From the NCBI RefSeq assembly GCF_988242995.1, contig NZ_OZ547043.1: DNA of 64,000 nt; one strand, written 5' to 3'. Below the pieces are notes generated by a model. It worked only from the letters and a program-made list of their open reading frames with translations. It was not told the DNA's origin and made no database searches. This document shows, piece by piece, positions 15,052-35,437 of the stretch. The first letter of the stretch is position 1. The number at the start of each line of letters is the position of its first letter. The translations under genes were made by a program, and so were the position numbers.

Positions 15052-16800
15052 TCACCCCTTGTGAAGTAACTCCATAAATGCCTCATATCCTGTTAACCCG
15101 GCAATAACCTCTGCCGGATGCTGACACAATACGCTTGCCAGATAGCTAAATATTTTTAGCTCATGACGCGCATCGGCGGCGGCACAGGCGATCAGTACAT
15201 GGTTAACGACTTCGTTATTCACCTCAACCGGTTGGGCGAGGGTAATAAAAAATCCACGAAAACGTCGCTCCTGTTCGCTCCAGCAATGGGGGATGGCGAG
15301 GCGATTAACAATCAGGTTTTCACCTTCGCCTTCGCGGGCGATGATCCGTTGTACTTCATCGGCGGTAATGTGGTGTTGCGTTACTGATTGCGCACATATT
15401 TGCCGGGTAATATGTTGCCAGCTTTCACCGCGTACATTCGAATAATGAAAACTTCCGGGGGCAGAGAAAAAACGCTCCGGCTGCTGGCGAATAAATGCCG
15501 TCGCCAGAAAATGTTTTATTTGTTCGATACCGGCAGCCGTAATGATATTTTTTACGGTGATGTAATTATTTACCGCGTCATCCAGTAAATAATGGCTGTT
15601 GTTAATGATCAATAACGGCTCAATTTCTTCGCGAATGGCAACCAGTTCGCTTACGCTGCGGGCAATAATCACCCGACAATTCAGGACGTCGCGCTCAATG
15701 GCGAGCTGATTAATGGTGGCAATCGCGTTCTGATCAGATAGCAAAATGATCGGCTGGCGTTCGTTTTGATGCCGTTCCAGCGCACAGGCAAAATACAAAC
15801 CGATCAGATCGCTGTCGAAAAGGGGAATATCGAGTTGTTCACGCAGTAGCGTAATAAAGTGCAGACTCATATCAAAGGCCGCAGGCCAGGCGGCTTTCAG
15901 GTTATTCATGCTGCTTTGGCGGTGCTCACCAATCCACACCGGCGCGGCAAGGCAACGTAATAAATGCCCGGTAATATTCTCAACCAGTTGCGTATCAATA
16001 ATATTCAATGACGCAATGCCCGGCACCCTTTGCAGCAATGCCAGCACATTATCGACACAAATAACCTGCGCCTGTTGATGCTGTTTTTCTATCAACCCCG
16101 TCAACGTTCTTACAGCGTTATCACCAAGAAACAGGCCGCTATATTCAACGATCTGTTTTATCTCGCTACCGGGATATTGCGGCCACTCATCGGTCAGTTG
16201 ATTACGCAGGGCGTAAATCGCCAGAATCAGGCTGGAGAGATAATCACCCTGCATCAGCGGCCAGCGGTGTTGGTTGTCGCAGACCGTGGATAATTGCTGA
16301 AGGTTGTCTCGTGTTACGCCCGCCAGAGGAATTAAAAACGGATCTTTGCGCAGCAAGTTCGCCAGCAATATAACGCGTTTCTCTTCTGTCTCATCAATGA
16401 AATGGCCCAAACCGGGGCGACTGGCCAGGCAGCAAGTACGTTCATAACGCTGTTTCAGGCGGGGCAGACGCTCTGCTACCCACGTTTCTGGCAAATTAAG
16501 CGCCGAGGCGAGTTGCGCACGGGGAGTAAAGGTATTCAGTAATAATAGCGCCAGCAGCCGATCGTCGTTATCGTGCTTTTGCAGCAACTGAAAAAAGCTG
16601 CGGCGTTCGAAGATTTCCAACTGATAGCCCGCGTTACCACTGGCGGAAATGCGGGCTTTGCCGTTAAGGGTAAAGTTGAGATAGTCAATATCACGCAGGA
16701 TGGTCCTGCCTGAAACGCCAGTCTGTTGCGCCAGCTCGCCAGGCGTGCGCGGCTGTTGCTCAAGGAGATCGACAATCTTTAACTGGCGTTCGTTTAGCAT
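15052..16800 (-). CDS. frvR: frv operon transcriptional regulator
   Basis: 582-aa ORF; N-terminal HTH; conserved position. Confidence 0.9.
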   Translation of the reverse strand: MLNERQLKIVDLLEQQPRTPGELAQQTGVSGRTILRDIDYLNFTLNGKARISASGNAGYQLEIFERRSFFQLLQKHDNDDRLLALLLLNTFTPRAQLASALNLPETWVAERLPRLKQRYERTCCLASRPGLGHFIDETEEKRVILLANLLRKDPFLIPLAGVTRDNLQQLSTVCDNQHRWPLMQGDYLSSLILAIYALRNQLTDEWPQYPGSEIKQIVEYSGLFLGDNAVRTLTGLIEKQHQQAQVICVDNVLALLQRVPGIASLNIIDTQLVENITGHLLRCLAAPVWIGEHRQSSMNNLKAAWPAAFDMSLHFITLLREQLDIPLFDSDLIGLYFACALERHQNERQPIILLSDQNAIATINQLAIERDVLNCRVIIARSVSELVAIREEIEPLLIINNSHYLLDDAVNNYITVKNIITAAGIEQIKHFLATAFIRQQPERFFSAPGSFHYSNVRGESWQHITRQICAQSVTQHHITADEVQRIIAREGEGENLIVNRLAIPHCWSEQERRFRGFFITLAQPVEVNNEVVNHVLIACAAADARHELKIFSYLASVLCQHPAEVIAGLTGYEAFMELLHKG

Positions 16801-19768: not shown

Positions 19769-20244
19769 TATTGGATTCCATGAAAAAATATTATAGTTAA
19801 TTGTAACGGCGGGGCGGTTTTGTGATGAGCGCGGATATGTCGTGAAGTCGTGACAATATAAGGCAGAGTGAAGGATAAATTTTGCGGTGTAAGGCACATA
19901 TTGATGGGCAAAATAAATGCAGTGAATAAAAAATCATTATTTAATGATGTTGTGAATGTTTAACTGCCGCACATGTTTTGCAGCAAGGTTATTTATATTT
20001 GTGGCTTATGAGTCAGCGTGAATTATATCTAATATTTTTTACGATATTTAGTTAAAAACGGCACTATTGTTATATTCCTCACGTTCCAGGAAATCAGCGG
20101 ATTTACTCATATTATGCAGCGGGATACTATCCATCGGCCTGCTGAAGTTGGATTAAAAATTCGAAAGTGCACACCTTATATTTCTCTATATACGTATTCC
20201 TTTTGGAAAGCGTAGGGTCTCTTTTATTTCAGGGAACGTAAATA

Positions 20245-21639
20245 ATGAAAAAATCGACATTATCTTTAGTCATCGGTTTATTATTGGCATGTAGTACCGG
20301 AATGGCAAAAACACAGCATTTAACGCTGGAACAACGCATGGCATTGCTGGAAGAACGCCTGGAAGCGGCAGAAATGCGGGCAGCAAAAGCAGAGGGGCAG
20401 GTTAAACAGCTTCAGACACAACAAGCCGCCGAGATCCGCGAAATTAAAACCGCACAGGGCAACACGCCGGTAAACGGTCAATCAACGACGGAGTCAGAGA
20501 AGAAAAACGCCACCTCGCCTAATCTCCTGCTTTCAGGGTATGGCGATTTAAAAATCTACGGCGACGTAGAATTTAATATGGATGCAGAAAGTAATCATGG
20601 CCTGCTGGCAATGACCAACGCTGATGTGAATAGCGATCCCACTAATGAACAGTGGAATCTCAATGGTCGTATTCTGTTAGGTTTTGATGGTATGCGAAAA
20701 CTGGATAATGGTTATTTCGCCGGGTTCTCCGCACAACCGCTGGGGGATATGCACGGTTCAGTGAATATTGATGACGCGGTATTCTTCTTTGGGAAAGAGA
20801 ATGACTGGAAGGTCAAAGTCGGTCGTTTCGAAGCCTATGATATGTTCCCGCTGAATCAGGATACCTTTGTTGAACATTCCGGTAATACTGCGAACGATCT
20901 TTATGACGATGGCAGCGGTTATATCTATATGATGAAAGAGGGCCGCGGGCGCTCTAACGCTGGCGGTAATTTCCTCGTCAGCAAGCAACTCGATAACTGG
21001 TATTTTGAATTAAACACGTTACTTGAAGACGGAACATCTTTATATAATGACAGTAATTATCATGGACGCGATATGGAGCAGCAGAAAAATGTTGCTTATC
21101 TGCGTCCAGTAATTGCCTGGTCGCCGACGGAAGAATTCACCGTTTCCGCAGCGATGGAAGCGAACGTGGTAAATAATGCTTATGGTTATACCGATAGCAA
21201 GGGTAATTTTGTCGATCAGTCCGATCGTACCGGCTATGGTATGAGCATGACCTGGAATGGCCTGAAAACGGATCCGGAAAATGGCGTCGTGGTTAATCTT
21301 AATACCGCCTATTTAGATGCTAATAATGAGAAAGATTTCACTGCCGGGATTAACGCGCTGTGGAAACGTTTCGAGCTGGGTTATATCTACGCGCACAATA
21401 AGATTGATGAATTCAGCGGTGTAGTTTGTGATAACGACTGCTGGATTGATGATGAAGGGACGTACACCATTCACACCATTCATGCGTCTTATCAGTTCGC
21501 TAATGTGATGGATATGGAGAACTTTAATATTTACCTCGGGACGTATTACTCCATTCTGGATAGCGACGGTGATAAAAAACACGGTGATGATACTGATGAC
21601 CGTTACGGGGCACGCGTTCGCTTTAAATACTTCTTCTGA
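20245..21639 (+). CDS. putative outer-membrane beta-barrel porin with N-terminal coiled-coil; strain-specific, not in K-12 at this locus
   Basis: 464-aa ORF; signal peptide MKKSTLSLVIGLLLACSTGMA; coiled-coil LEQRMALLEERLEAAEMRAAKAEGQVKQLQ; alternating amphipathic segments; C-terminus RFKYFF typical of OM beta-barrels; SD AGGGAA upstream; AT-rich 5' flank. Confidence 0.75.
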   Translation: MKKSTLSLVIGLLLACSTGMAKTQHLTLEQRMALLEERLEAAEMRAAKAEGQVKQLQTQQAAEIREIKTAQGNTPVNGQSTTESEKKNATSPNLLLSGYGDLKIYGDVEFNMDAESNHGLLAMTNADVNSDPTNEQWNLNGRILLGFDGMRKLDNGYFAGFSAQPLGDMHGSVNIDDAVFFFGKENDWKVKVGRFEAYDMFPLNQDTFVEHSGNTANDLYDDGSGYIYMMKEGRGRSNAGGNFLVSKQLDNWYFELNTLLEDGTSLYNDSNYHGRDMEQQKNVAYLRPVIAWSPTEEFTVSAAMEANVVNNAYGYTDSKGNFVDQSDRTGYGMSMTWNGLKTDPENGVVVNLNTAYLDANNEKDFTAGINALWKRFELGYIYAHNKIDEFSGVVCDNDCWIDDEGTYTIHTIHASYQFANVMDMENFNIYLGTYYSILDSDGDKKHGDDTDDRYGARVRFKYFF

Positions 21640-21647
21640 TGAAGGCG

Positions 21648-21676
21648 CGGTGCTGGATATTTTCCGGCACCGCAAC
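21648..21676. terminator. putative bidirectional terminator between the convergent porin gene and rhaM
   Basis: GCGGTGC TGGATATTTTCC GGCACCGC inverted repeat. Confidence 0.45.
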
Positions 21677-21679
21677 TCA

Positions 21680-21994
21680 TTAAGGCAGGTAAAACACGTC
21701 TTGCAGCTCGCTACTGACTGGGCTGTTATCCGGGTTAGCTGGCATAACGTCGGTCATATATTTCCACCAACGTTGGCAAACATCAGTACTGGCTACCGCA
21801 TTCCACCGTTCTTCAGATTCAATCTCTACTGTGGCAAATAGCAGATTACGCGCTTTGTCGAGGTAAATGGCGTAGTTATGCGCACCGTGAGATTTCAACA
21901 CTGCTTCCAGTTCCGGCCAGATGGGATTATGCCGATGCTGATACTCTTCGTGGGCGTCGGGGTTAACCTGCATGACAAAGGCTTTGCGGATCAT
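21680..21994 (-). CDS. rhaM: L-rhamnose mutarotase
   Basis: 104-aa [37 protein letters not shown]; conserved position beside rhaD. Confidence 0.95.
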
Positions 21995-22828: not shown

Positions 22829-22852
22829 GTTCTGTGTTCCTGTAAATTCGGT

Positions 22853-22907
22853 GTTGTCGGATGCACGATCTGTCGGCCGAATAAGGCGCTCGCGCCGCAT
22901 CCGGCAG
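22853..22907. repeat. REP element in the rhaA-rhaD intergenic region
   Basis: TGTCGGATGCACGATCTGTCGGCCGAATAAGGCGCTCGCGCCGCATCCGGCA resembles the REP consensus. Confidence 0.6.
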
Positions 22908-22910
22908 TGT

Positions 22911-30861: not shown

Positions 30862-31009
30862 ACCTGCTTCCTTAATCCCCACAGCCGGATGAACTAACGT
30901 TCGTCCGGTTTGCTATTGAGTTCTTGCCTGGATACTTACCGCGAAAACAGCACGCCTGACATAAAATAAATATGGTCTAATGGGGAAATTTCTCGTGGAG
31001 AGGGAACAG

Positions 31010-31684
31010 ATGCGATATCCGGTTGATGTATACACAGGCAAGATTCAGGCTTATCCCGAAGGCAAACCCAGCGCAATTGCCAAAATCCAGGTTGATGGTG
31101 AGTTGATGCTGACGGAGCTGGGGCTGGAAGGTGACGAGCAGGCGGAGAAGAAGGTTCACGGCGGGCCAGACAGAGCGCTGTGTCATTATCCTCGTGAGCA
31201 TTATCTCTACTGGGCGCGGGAATTTCCGGAACAGGCGGAGTTGTTTGTTGCGCCTGCGTTTGGCGAAAATCTCTCAACCGACGGTCTGACGGAAAGTAAT
31301 GTTTATATGGGCGATATTTTCCGCTGGGGAGAGGCATTAATTCAGGTCAGCCAGCCACGCTCACCTTGCTATAAACTCAATTACCATTTTGATATCAGCG
31401 ATATAGCGCAGTTGATGCAAAACACGGGTAAAGTTGGGTGGTTGTATAGCGTGATTGCGCCAGGGTTGGTATCTGCTGATGCGCCACTGGAGTTGGTTTC
31501 CCGTGTCAGTGATGTGACCGTGCAGGAGGCTGCCGCCATCGCATGGCATATGCCGTTTGATGACGAGCAGTATCACCGTTTACTCTCCGCCGCCGGGTTA
31601 TCGAAAAGCTGGACGCGGACGATGCAAAAGCGCCGACTGAGCGGCAAGATCGAAGATTTTTCCCGCCGGTTGTGGGGAAAATAA
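31010..31684 (+). CDS. yiiM: MOSC-domain protein YiiM (6-N-hydroxylaminopurine resistance)
   Basis: ORF 30980..31684; the internal Met MRYPVDVYTGKIQAYPEGK gives 224 aa. Confidence 0.9.
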   Translation: MRYPVDVYTGKIQAYPEGKPSAIAKIQVDGELMLTELGLEGDEQAEKKVHGGPDRALCHYPREHYLYWAREFPEQAELFVAPAFGENLSTDGLTESNVYMGDIFRWGEALIQVSQPRSPCYKLNYHFDISDIAQLMQNTGKVGWLYSVIAPGLVSADAPLELVSRVSDVTVQEAAAIAWHMPFDDEQYHRLLSAAGLSKSWTRTMQKRRLSGKIEDFSRRLWGK

Positions 31685-31734
31685 GGCTGTCTTAATACGA
31701 AATCTGGCATGGTTTCCGGTGAGAGCAGTGCCGT

Positions 31735-31935
31735 TTGCATTGTGCTGAGTTTTTCCCTCACCCTAACCCTCTCCCCAGAGGGGCGAGGGGACTGTCCGGA
31801 GCGGTGCTCAGCTCCGTTGCTGAACAGGGCTACGTTTTTCCCCCTCGCCCTTTCAGGGAGAGGGCCGGGGTGAGGGTATCAGTTCGCACAGTGCTGACCT
31901 GTTGCCTTCACCCCGAAGGGGACGGCCCTGCGCCG
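31735..31935. repeat. cluster of GC-rich imperfect palindromic intergenic repeats (boxC-like)
   Basis: CCCTCACCCTAACCCTCTCCCCAGAGGGGCGAGGGGAC and CCCCCTCGCCCTTTCAGGGAGAGGGCCGGGGTGAGGG in inverted orientation between yiiM and cpxA. Confidence 0.5.
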
Positions 31936-31938
31936 AGT

Positions 31939-33312
31939 TTAACTCCGCTTATACAGCGGCAACCAAATCACCAGCCGTAAACCGCCCAGCGGGCTGTCTT
32001 CCGCTTTAACCCAGCCACGATGCTGCTGAATGGCGGTTTCAACAATCGCCAGCCCCAAACCTGTACCGCCAGATTCACGATCGCGTGCTTCATCGGTACG
32101 ATAGAACGGACGGAAAATCTGTTCGCGATCTTCCGGGCTAACGCCAGGACCATCGTCGTCCACCGTAATGGTGATACCGTCTTTATCTACCGCAAAGCCC
32201 ACTTCAATCTTCGTATGGGAATAACGCAGGGCATTACGAACAATGTTTTCCAGCGCACTCTCCAGGGCGTTCGGGTTGCCGTACAGCGGCCACGGCCCAG
32301 GCGGGAAGTTAACCGTCAACGACTTGCCCATTTGCTCGGCTTCGAACGCCGCGTTATCCAGCACTTCGCCCCACAACTGGTTAGCTTTCAATGTCTCGCT
32401 TACCAGCGCGTTTTTCTGCTGATTACGTGACATCACCAACAGATCGTTAATCATGCTGTCCAGACGTTGCGCTTCGGTTTCAATACGCTCCAGTTCCTTG
32501 CTTTCACCGCTACGACGGCGCAGTAACGCCGTACCCAGTTGCAGACGCGTCAGCGGGGTGCGCAGCTCGTGAGAGATATCAGAAAGTAGACGCTGCTGAG
32601 AGGTCATCATGCGCTCCAGCGCGGTGACCATCTGGTTAAAACTGGCACCGGCGGCAAGGAATTCCTGTGGCCCCGCTTCCAGTTCCGGGTGCTGACGTAA
32701 GTTTCCCTGGGCAACTTCATCGGCAGCGTTTTTCAGCTTACGCGCCGGTTTTGCCAGACTCCAGGCCAACCACAACAGCAGCGGCGTACTGACCAACATG
32801 GTGACAATCAGCAGTAATAGCGGGCGGTCAAACAGTAAGTTAATGAAATCGGATTGAGAACTGCTGGCCGGACGAATCAGATAAAGTTGGTAATTATCTT
32901 CGCCATCACGCACTGAGAACGGACCGACCAGTTCCACGCGGCCATACTTTTTCTTCTGCGGATGATCGGCGTTATCGGCCTGACCAATAAAGTTACGAAT
33001 GATCTGCATTTCGCTGCGTTCAGCGCCGATCACGCGGCCCTCGGTGGTCACCAATAACAAACGCTGTCCTGGCGGTGCCCACTTATCAATCGCCCGGAAC
33101 AGACGCCGCCACCACATTAAATCGTTGGGCGGATCGTTCGCCAGCTCCGCTTCGACATGCTGCTCAATCATCAGACCCTGACGCTGTTCGCTATCCAGAA
33201 GCTCGGTCATCTGGCGTGAATCGAGCTTGGGTAACATCAAAACCAACATCAACACCAGCGCCAGCGTCAGCCAGAAGATGGCGAAGATGCGCGCGGTTAA
33301 GCTGCCTATCAT
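31939..33312 (-). CDS. cpxA: envelope-stress sensor histidine kinase CpxA
   Basis: 457-aa ORF with H-box (SHELRTPLTR) and ATP-binding motifs. Confidence 0.95.
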   Translation of the reverse strand: MIGSLTARIFAIFWLTLALVLMLVLMLPKLDSRQMTELLDSEQRQGLMIEQHVEAELANDPPNDLMWWRRLFRAIDKWAPPGQRLLLVTTEGRVIGAERSEMQIIRNFIGQADNADHPQKKKYGRVELVGPFSVRDGEDNYQLYLIRPASSSQSDFINLLFDRPLLLLIVTMLVSTPLLLWLAWSLAKPARKLKNAADEVAQGNLRQHPELEAGPQEFLAAGASFNQMVTALERMMTSQQRLLSDISHELRTPLTRLQLGTALLRRRSGESKELERIETEAQRLDSMINDLLVMSRNQQKNALVSETLKANQLWGEVLDNAAFEAEQMGKSLTVNFPPGPWPLYGNPNALESALENIVRNALRYSHTKIEVGFAVDKDGITITVDDDGPGVSPEDREQIFRPFYRTDEARDRESGGTGLGLAIVETAIQQHRGWVKAEDSPLGGLRLVIWLPLYKRS

Positions 33313-34724: not shown

Positions 34725-35405
34725 GTGCACAGAAAACCCCCAGCTAGGCTGGGGGTTCCGGAAAGCTTTCAGCTTTGAGCCAGTTATTAAAACCCCTTTT
34801 GATTTGTTAAAACACCTTGCGGTCTGGCAACTGCAAGTGTCAAACAAGAAATCAAAAGGGGGTCCCAATGGGGGACGAAAAGAGCTTAGCGCACACCCGC
34901 TGGAACTGTAAATATCACATAGTTTTTGCGCCGAAATACCGAAGACTGGCGTTTTACGGAGAGAAGCGTAGGGCGATAGGCAGTATTTTGAGAAAGCTGT
35001 GTGAGTGGAAAAGCGTACGGATTCTGGAAGCAGAGTGCTGCGCAGATCATATCCATATGCTTGTGGAAATCCCACCCAAAATGAGCGTATCCGGCTTTAT
35101 GGGATATCTGAAAGGGAAAAGCAGTCTGATGCTTTACGAGCAGTTTGGGGATTTGAAATTCAAATACAGAAACAGGGAGTTCTGGTGCCGAGGGTACTAT
35201 GTCGATACGGTGGGTAAGAACACGGCGAAGATACGTGACTACATAAAGCACCAGCTTGAAGAGGATAAAATGGGGGAGCAGTTATCGATTCCATATCCGG
35301 GCAGCCCGTTTACGGGCCGTAAGTAACGAAGTTGAATGCAAATGTCAGATCGTATGCGCCTGTTAGGGCGCGGCTGGTAACAGAGCCTTACAGGCGCATT
35401 TGAAA
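34700..35405 (+). mobile_element. IS200-like insertion sequence (IS200/IS605 family); boundaries approximate
   Basis: single ~152-aa Y1 transposase ORF flanked by structured ends (hairpins AAACCCCCAGCTAGGCTGGGGGTT on the left, TGCGCCTGT...ACAGGCGCA on the right); no terminal inverted repeats, as expected for IS200; intergenic region is about 0.7 kb longer than my recollection of K-12. Confidence 0.7.
34868..35326 (+). CDS. tnpA: IS200/IS605-family Y1 (HUH) transposase TnpA
   Basis: ORF 34817..35326; start MGDEKSLAHTRWNCKYHIVFAPKYRR; HUH motif HIHMLV; catalytic Tyr near the C-terminus. Confidence 0.85.
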   Translation: MGDEKSLAHTRWNCKYHIVFAPKYRRLAFYGEKRRAIGSILRKLCEWKSVRILEAECCADHIHMLVEIPPKMSVSGFMGYLKGKSSLMLYEQFGDLKFKYRNREFWCRGYYVDTVGKNTAKIRDYIKHQLEEDKMGEQLSIPYPGSPFTGRK

Positions 35406-35407
35406 AA

Positions 35408-35437
35408 CCTCCGGCTATGCCGGAGGATATTTATTTA
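35408..35437 (+). terminator. weak hairpin with an AT-rich tail upstream of fieF
   Basis: CCTCCGGCTATGCCGGAGG followed by ATATTTATTTA. Confidence 0.35.

Follow-up and report, generated by a model that had tools for sequence, protein, structure and literature searches.

The question raised by this locus is what the GC-rich DNA between the convergent genes yiiM and cpxA is and what, if anything, it does there. In the window (the whole stretch of DNA analysed here, 64 kb in length), yiiM occupies positions 30980–31684 of the plus strand, with its stop codon at 31682–31684, and cpxA occupies 31939–33312 of the minus strand, with its stop codon at 31939–31941, which leaves a 3'-to-3' gap of 254 bp. 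The first-pass annotation described 31735–31935 as a cluster of GC-rich blocks in inverted orientation, similar to the BoxC/RSA class of enterobacterial intergenic repeats, and such blocks are indeed present at these positions between the two genes. The GC content is 63% in 31735–31935 and 66% in the repeat core (31755–31877), as opposed to 51% in the whole window. The core is enclosed in an extended imperfect palindrome (31737–31895), and a degenerate third unit reaches position ~31928. The overlap with the 3' end of cpxA that was also suggested does not exist: the interval stops at 31935 and the repeat-derived bases at ~31928, short of the cpxA stop codon.

The core contains six 9-mer blocks, which start at 31755 (CCCTCACCC), 31767 (CCCTCTCCC), 31781 (GGGCGAGGG), 31842 (CCCTCGCCC), 31856 (GGGAGAGGG) and 31868 (GGGTGAGGG). 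Apart from a stray GGGCGAGGG at 15234, these blocks are found in the 64-kb window only in the yiiM-cpxA gap. The 21-nt pattern CCCTCACCCNNNCCCTCTCCC has two matches in the window, located on opposite strands, for a chance expectation of ~0.02, and two matches were seen in none of 100 shuffled sequences.

The family to which these blocks point has been described under several names: BoxC in the 1990s, PIT elements in 2000–2002 (Hoyne and Maher), TMECO in 2015 (Holder et al., PMC4666352) and HPG1/HPG2 in 2016 (Kaplan et al., PMC5100583; see also PMC2267715). The TMECO motif has the form CCCTCNCCC-N3-6-GGGNGAGGG-N3-GGGNGAGGG, where the second loop is TTA in type A and CCG in type B, and paired TMECO sites are composed of one A and one B unit on opposite strands (PMC4666352). 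A search of the whole window with the strict motif, written as a regular expression, gave exactly two matches, at 31842–31876 on the plus strand and at 31755–31789 on the minus strand. The second loop is TTA in unit 1 and CCG in unit 2, and the units lie on opposite strands, in line with the published A+B pairing rule. The third unit (31904–31928) does not match the strict motif. Unit 2 is identical in all 36 positions to TMECO no. 10 of MG1655, located in the ygfF-gcvP gap, and unit 1 matches MG1655 TMECO nos. 9, 16, 19 and 22 in 35 of 36 positions, the difference being in the last base. The G-rich run of unit 1, read on the minus strand, is exactly the HPG1 consensus GGGAGAGGGTTAGGGTGAGGG, and that of unit 2, read on the plus strand, is exactly the HPG2 consensus GGGAGAGGGCCGGGGTGAGGG; in HPG1 and HPG2 this run sits after a C-rich block (PMC5100583). 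At the level of sequence, each unit could form seven G.G:C triads, one T.A:T triad and one mismatched A.A:G triad, which corresponds to the "mm" type.

Both intact units fit the published motif and one of them is identical to a K-12 copy, so the assignment to a BoxC-class enterobacterial intergenic repeat holds. Judged by its motif, the yiiM-cpxA array belongs to BoxC, a known family, and is not new in kind. It shares with the elements described as BoxC, PIT, TMECO and HPG the three-block motif, the TTA and CCG loops, the "mm" G in the C-rich block, the intergenic location and the inverted arrangement of an A and a B unit. The gap and its repeats contain the following features.

31685–31754, plus strand: leader of the gap, specific to this allele, repeated nowhere else and found once per genome by blastn
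31725–31743: weak terminator-like hairpin inside the leader, followed by GAGTTTTT (terminator scan)
31755–31789, minus strand: BoxC/TMECO unit 1, type A-mm (TTA second loop), regular-expression match to the published motif
31790–31841, no strand assigned: inner spacer of 52 bp with its own small hairpin, in which GGAGC (31798–31802) pairs with GCTCC (31811–31815)
31842–31877, plus strand: BoxC/TMECO unit 2, type B-mm (CCG second loop), regular-expression match
31878–31903, no strand assigned: outer spacer of 26 bp between unit 2 and the remnant unit, aligning with the spacer of the ygfF-gcvP pair
~31904–31928, minus strand: degenerate remnant of a third BoxC unit resembling type A, from which ~19 internal bp are missing (alignment)
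31737–31895, no strand assigned: whole imperfect palindrome of ~160 bp, made of the A and B units with conserved flanks (RNA and DNA folds)

Unit 1 reads CCCTCGCCC-CTCTG-GGGAGAGGG-TTA-GGGTGAGGG on the minus strand, and unit 2 reads CCCTCGCCC-TTTCA-GGGAGAGGG-CCG-GGGTGAGGG-T on the plus strand. The edges of the inner spacer are formed by a conserved tail of the A unit, GACTGTCCGGAGC, and a conserved T-rich lead of the B unit, GTTTTTCC. The third unit, in the plus-strand reading, is reduced to CCTTCACCCC-GA-AGGGGACGGCCC and retains a small CCCC/GGGG hairpin. Its alignment with the intact ygfF-gcvP unit of another strain shows a gap of 19 columns, and a direct repeat (D1) together with an inverted repeat (I1) tie it to units 1 and 2. 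The third unit is a deletion derivative and probably the trace of a slippage-type event; partial deletion at paired TMECO sites, as in this unit, has been reported (PMC4666352).

The whole array reads as a mosaic in which BoxC units are combined with spacers of two kinds, a construction similar to that of BIMEs. The three-unit array with both spacer types (A-52 bp-B and B-26 bp-A) distinguishes this locus from the other BoxC loci, where the A-52 bp-B spacer occurs at rhaD-rhaA and lldD-trmL, and the B-26 bp-A spacer at ygfF-gcvP. The array is also set apart by its absence from K-12 and by its occurrence as a rare allele (3% of complete genomes) in place of REP/BIME.

RSA, the other name in the initial class assignment, is a family separate from BoxC and occurs also in Salmonella. 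Its consensus, associated with Bachellier and Hofnung, is said to be ~152 bp long. TMECO has been reported absent from Salmonella (PMC4666352), an argument against equating the BoxC doublet with RSA. The MG1655 record has no RSA feature at the BoxC loci inspected. Nor are the units REP sequences: in strain 1296KP, a carrier of the same allele with a gap of 255 bp, REP (PU) consensus sequences such as GCCGGATGCGGCGTAAACGCCTTATCCGGCCTAC had no match in this gap, whereas the same scan gave two or three REP-like matches per REP allele.

The array is not labelled in existing records. There is no repeat feature at the BoxC loci in the records inspected, including the MG1655 reference (two loci), and in the accessible part of the supplement to PMC4666352 (63 TMECO loci, with genes named for MG1655 loci only) cpxA, yiiM and rhaD are not mentioned. 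PGAP placed no annotation of any kind under the match in the RefSeq genomes listed, and a scan of the gap revealed no promoter-like sites. A scan against Rfam at a permissive E-value returned no family, the top match being mir-1275 with 22.8 bits for a threshold of 71; such matches are chance microRNA or generic long-hairpin similarity, far below the threshold.

The distribution of the family was established with blastn, using the 128-bp doublet against 5426 complete E. coli genomes. BoxC is present in 5407 of them; the number of places ranges from 1 to 27 per genome (median 16), and of the 78,248 places in total only 35 are plasmid-borne. There are 16 BoxC places in strain VCSW5, whose sequence shows 100% identity to the window, so the sequence is anything but unique in its genome. 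The interval is non-coding, multi-copy repeat DNA.

The expectation that such elements vary in copy number between strains is borne out for the family as a whole but not for this locus, where the variation consists in all-or-none replacement of the gap. The BoxC allele is found at yiiM-cpxA in 160 of the 5426 genomes and is absent from 97% of E. coli; these 160 are exactly the genomes that contain the leader (31685–31754), each in a single copy. REP/BIME fills the gap in most of the remaining 5265 genomes with matching flanks, as judged from ~36 sampled rows and four alleles that were read. The latter, from K-12 C600, an ST131 strain, 2014C-3051 and JJ1887, are REP/BIME sequences of 104–170 bp that cannot be aligned with the allele of the window. 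BoxC and REP alleles differ from the first bases beyond the yiiM stop codon and come together again ~13 bp short of the stop codon of cpxA. Target-site duplications were found neither at these allele boundaries nor in the comparison of filled and empty rhaD-rhaA sites. No sharp imported patch is visible either, sliding identity to K-12 and to another carrier being 97–98% around the gap, which is ordinary divergence. In 155 records the doublet is at least 99% identical over its length, and since all 160 carriers keep the array essentially intact, it is not visibly unstable at yiiM-cpxA. This rare allele is a tidy case of repeat turnover in a 3' gap.

The intergenic BoxC copies inspected are those at yiiM-cpxA, rhaD-rhaA, ygfF-gcvP, pstA-pstB and lldD-trmL. 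The rhaD-rhaA gap, located 9 kb from yiiM-cpxA, is empty of BoxC both in the window and in the carrier 1296KP. In many other E. coli it contains an A-spacer-B doublet that is 91–92% identical to the present one, the spacer included, over a 126-bp match. The gap is 82 bp long in the window (22829–22910) and contains a single REP, as compared to 241 bp with the BoxC doublet in other E. coli; in K-12 it is 450 bp long, with a fourfold tandem BIME array and no BoxC. Filled and empty rhaD-rhaA sites differ by ~160 bp, approximately the size of the palindrome, with few flanking bases replaced. The rhaD-rhaA gap is another hotspot of repeat turnover besides that at yiiM-cpxA. A recent "local jump" from rhaD-rhaA to yiiM-cpxA was considered and rejected, as the two copies differ by ~8% and the rha site of K-12 is also empty of BoxC. 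In its B-spacer-A half, the array is similar to the ygfF-gcvP pair (TMECO nos. 10 and 11 of MG1655), and the doublet of MG1655 at lldD-trmL has the inner spacer edges, but not the centre, in common with the array of the window.

Other differences from K-12 were seen in the window. An insertion of ~700 bp (34726–35430), absent from K-12 C600 and 1296KP, lies directly after the terminator of cpxP, the 3' end of which is the source of the CpxQ small RNA. The open reading frame within it (34817–35326, plus strand) matches the IS200-like Y1 transposase family PF01797 (E 1e-36), and the flanks of the insertion overlap by 7 bp in uninterrupted genomes. The segment at ~20000–21700, between frvA and rhaM, has no counterpart in K-12 C600, and 1296KP has an annotated carbohydrate porin gene there. 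The frv-rha region (14–24 kb) is the part of the window most divergent from K-12, with 92–96% identity.

For a comparison with other species, the yiiM locus was taken from 80 species-level genomes and the gap was extracted where cpxA follows. A REP-type gap is found in the four other Escherichia-named genomes returned, in Citrobacter, in Salmonella and in some Enterobacter. Since REP occupies the gap in all four of the former, the BoxC allele is probably derived in Escherichia. BoxC doublets take up the gap almost completely in E. hormaechei, E. cloacae, E. soli and Enterobacter sp. RIT418, leaving 1–5 nt free next to each stop codon; the doublet of a Leclercia MAG has a longer spacer, and that of Huaxiibacter is degenerate. 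BoxC seems to have occupied this gap repeatedly or over a long period. A gap of only 31–40 bp, with one hairpin, separates the two genes in Trabulsiella, Raoultella terrigena, Phytobacter and others, and U-runs and terminator grade were established for the three that were closely scanned or read, Trabulsiella guamensis, T. odontotermitis and a Proteobacteria MAG. No canonical terminator was found in the REP- or BoxC-filled gaps scanned.

Several of the extracted gaps deserve a description of their own. The stem CCCTCTC(C)...G(G)AGAGGG, found in the short gaps L044, L045 and L072 (Trabulsiella) and L085 (Enterobacteriaceae MAG), is the Watson-Crick core of a BoxC unit. A T-run follows the stem in L044 and L045, the latter being scored as a terminator in either direction. 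Such stems may have originated from BoxC units that decayed and took on a terminator role, or they may represent the type of hairpin from which BoxC arose or which it targets. In L055 (Enterobacteriaceae bacterium RIT714, 1893–2238) and L071 (1902–2080), BoxC units at the ends enclose tandem arrays of a different repeat of ~40 bp, e.g., GAAAAGACCGTTCGGATCCGTCTTCTCCCC, and the yiiM-cpxA gap is expanded to 344 bp and 177 bp, respectively. At a much larger phylogenetic distance, the chromids of Azospirillum brasilense and A. argentinense, which are listed among plasmids, contain several matches per replicon to unit 1, 42–49 bp long and 90–95% identical (for example, NZ_CP032340.1, 989256–989300). 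Such likeness is striking for a non-coding repeat common to Alpha- and Gammaproteobacteria and fits the wide distribution described in PMC4666352, where Enterobacter asburiae LF7a is listed with 143 copies.

The secondary structure predicted for the gap is stable on both strands. Folded as RNA, the gap has an energy of -135 kcal/mol on the plus strand (z -6.3) and -124 kcal/mol on the minus strand (z -5.9), well beyond shuffled sequences. As DNA, the segment 31752–31880 folds with -41.6 and -41.0 kcal/mol (z -5.8 and -6.4). This stability resides in the pair of units: the two intact units are predicted to pair on either strand into a hairpin of ~125 nt, with pairing that extends outward to 31737–31895, whereas a single BoxC unit folds as DNA no better than shuffled sequence (z ~-1). 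The leader likewise folds about as well as shuffled sequence (z -0.2). The scan for Rho-independent terminators found no canonical one at the BoxC hairpins and weak sites only at 31717–31743, upstream of the repeats. Downstream of the long hairpin the sequence reads TATCAG on the plus strand and AAAAAC on the minus strand, and since there is no U-run on either strand, it is not a canonical Rho-independent terminator. The terminator role proposed at first does not agree with these features, nor with the earlier work on PIT elements, which was negative, according to the summary in PMC4666352, for promoter activity, for terminator activity and for an influence on polymerases in vivo.

The array is probably tolerated BoxC repeat DNA without a dedicated function, whose main effect would be to place an RNA hairpin at both 3' ends. 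It would persist because such repeats are tolerated where two convergent transcription units end. In each transcript that enters the gap, one unit would be G-rich and the other C-rich in the sense orientation, so that the long inter-unit hairpin should dominate; the two units would anneal into the GC-rich hairpin of ~125 nt. By analogy with REP hairpins, this structure would be an obstacle to 3' exonucleases and set a stable 3' end, and BIME/REP do yield stable RNA 3' ends in Term-seq data (PMC9023263). Stabilization of mRNA by BoxC is therefore regarded as plausible on this analogy, and a dedicated regulatory role as unlikely. In DNA, the quasi-palindrome may extrude hairpins or non-B forms on single strands in the course of replication, which would favour slippage deletions. 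The invariable pairing of a TTA-loop with a CCG-loop unit would leave a 3x3 internal loop, so that the palindrome is never perfect, and this is the proposed reason why doublets survive.

REP/BIME provide the model for the effect put forward here. Both kinds of element are short GC-rich palindromic intergenic repeats found in 3' regions, with alternating orientation and characteristic spacers; REP/BIME occupy the same gap in most E. coli, and REP hairpins stabilize upstream mRNA. However, their sequence is unrelated to that of BoxC, and REP has the cognate transposase RAYT, while none is known for BoxC. What speaks against functionless DNA is how extremely the three 9-nt blocks are conserved, with 90–95% matches even in Azospirillum; a partner that recognizes the sequence, or a copying mechanism, may lie behind this.

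Other explanations have to be compared with that of a tolerated array. The doublet might be a functional bidirectional terminator or insulator that prevents a collision between yiiM and cpxRA transcription. It lies exactly between the convergent stop codons, its predicted hairpin is very stable, it is the only structure in the gap of several Enterobacter species, and the short-gap genera hold at this place a classical bidirectional terminator, sometimes with a BoxC-like stem (CCCTCTCC...GGAGAGGG). The position is that of bidirectional Rho-independent terminators, and the terminator stem CCCTCTC...GAGAGGG of Trabulsiella and of the Enterobacteriaceae MAG is the Watson-Crick core of BoxC, but the BoxC hairpins here have no U-run on either strand. 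With the negative outcome of the PIT/BoxC tests summarised in PMC4666352, and with about half of the K-12 copies lying between tandem genes or upstream of operons (PMC5100583), a terminator function is unlikely. The units might instead each act as a non-B DNA switch, in the form of a purine-motif triplex or of a G-quadruplex/hairpin/duplex, which regulates the neighbouring genes or generates variation. By their sequence, both units conform to the triad rules with one mismatched triad, and both carry a G3N3G3N3G3N3G3 run identical to HPG1/HPG2. In vitro, triplexes were observed by CD and NMR, with folding of the "mm" type (PMC4666352), as were G-quadruplex/hairpin structures by CD (PMC5100583), and variability was higher at TMECO loci than at control loci (PMC4666352). 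However, DMS footprinting in vivo did not support a triplex, addition of the complementary strand gave a duplex, and no functional class is apparent among the neighbouring genes (PMC4666352). At yiiM-cpxA the carriers of the allele keep the array intact and the hairpins of single units are comparable to shuffled sequence, and a switch of this type is considered very unlikely. The suggestion that the gap encodes a small protein can practically be dismissed: open reading frames of 54 aa (31709–31873) and 81 aa (31735–31980) exist mechanically, but they run through the repeat units, the longer one continues into the antisense strand of cpxA, no annotation is present in the genomes inspected, no promoter-like site was found, and the sequence is missing from 97% of E. 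coli.

The remaining explanation concerns the origin of the array rather than its effect. The A+B doublet of ~160 bp might be a non-autonomous mobile element, similar to REPINs or MITEs and copied in trans, in which case the yiiM-cpxA copy would be an insertion. The 52-bp spacer and part of the flanks recur at rhaD-rhaA with 91–92% identity, that site being empty in the window and in 1296KP, the difference between filled and empty sites is ~160 bp, and two inverted units in a hairpin constitute the architecture of a REPIN. Moreover, Enterobacter and its relatives fill the same gap with different spacers, suggesting independent arrivals. Two inverted units with a conserved spacer, a long hairpin and dispersal as a unit are features shared with REPINs and with MITEs such as ERIC/IRU, but BoxC differs from these in having no target-site duplication, no known cognate enzyme and no evidence of recent transposition. 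Neither locus has a clean boundary, and short flanking stretches are replaced at both. A cognate transposase is not known, PMC4666352 did not find members of the family on plasmids, phages or transposons, and just the 35 places noted above are plasmid-borne in the complete E. coli genomes. The 8% divergence of the two copies indicates an old relationship instead of a recent jump, and the flanks are ordinary, with no imported patch. A mobile doublet is thus improbable. A more specific form of this idea is that the ~160-bp A+B doublet is a REPIN-like copying unit, recognized in trans by an enzyme acting on hairpins (e.g., of the Y1/RAYT type) that prefers terminator hairpins in 3' gaps, and this proposal, too, is distinctly doubtful. 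If it were true, the doublet would have landed repeatedly at yiiM-cpxA, in separate events in a minority lineage of E. coli and in Enterobacter and its relatives, and the near-invariance of the 9-nt blocks across Proteobacteria would be explained as that of a protein recognition site.

With the array read as tolerated BoxC DNA, a stretch that carried no annotation can now be named as BoxC and is freed from a false overlap with cpxA. The gap that follows the cpxRA envelope-stress operon represents a clean natural experiment, in which the same position is occupied, depending on the lineage, by a BoxC array, by varied REP/BIME or by a plain terminator.
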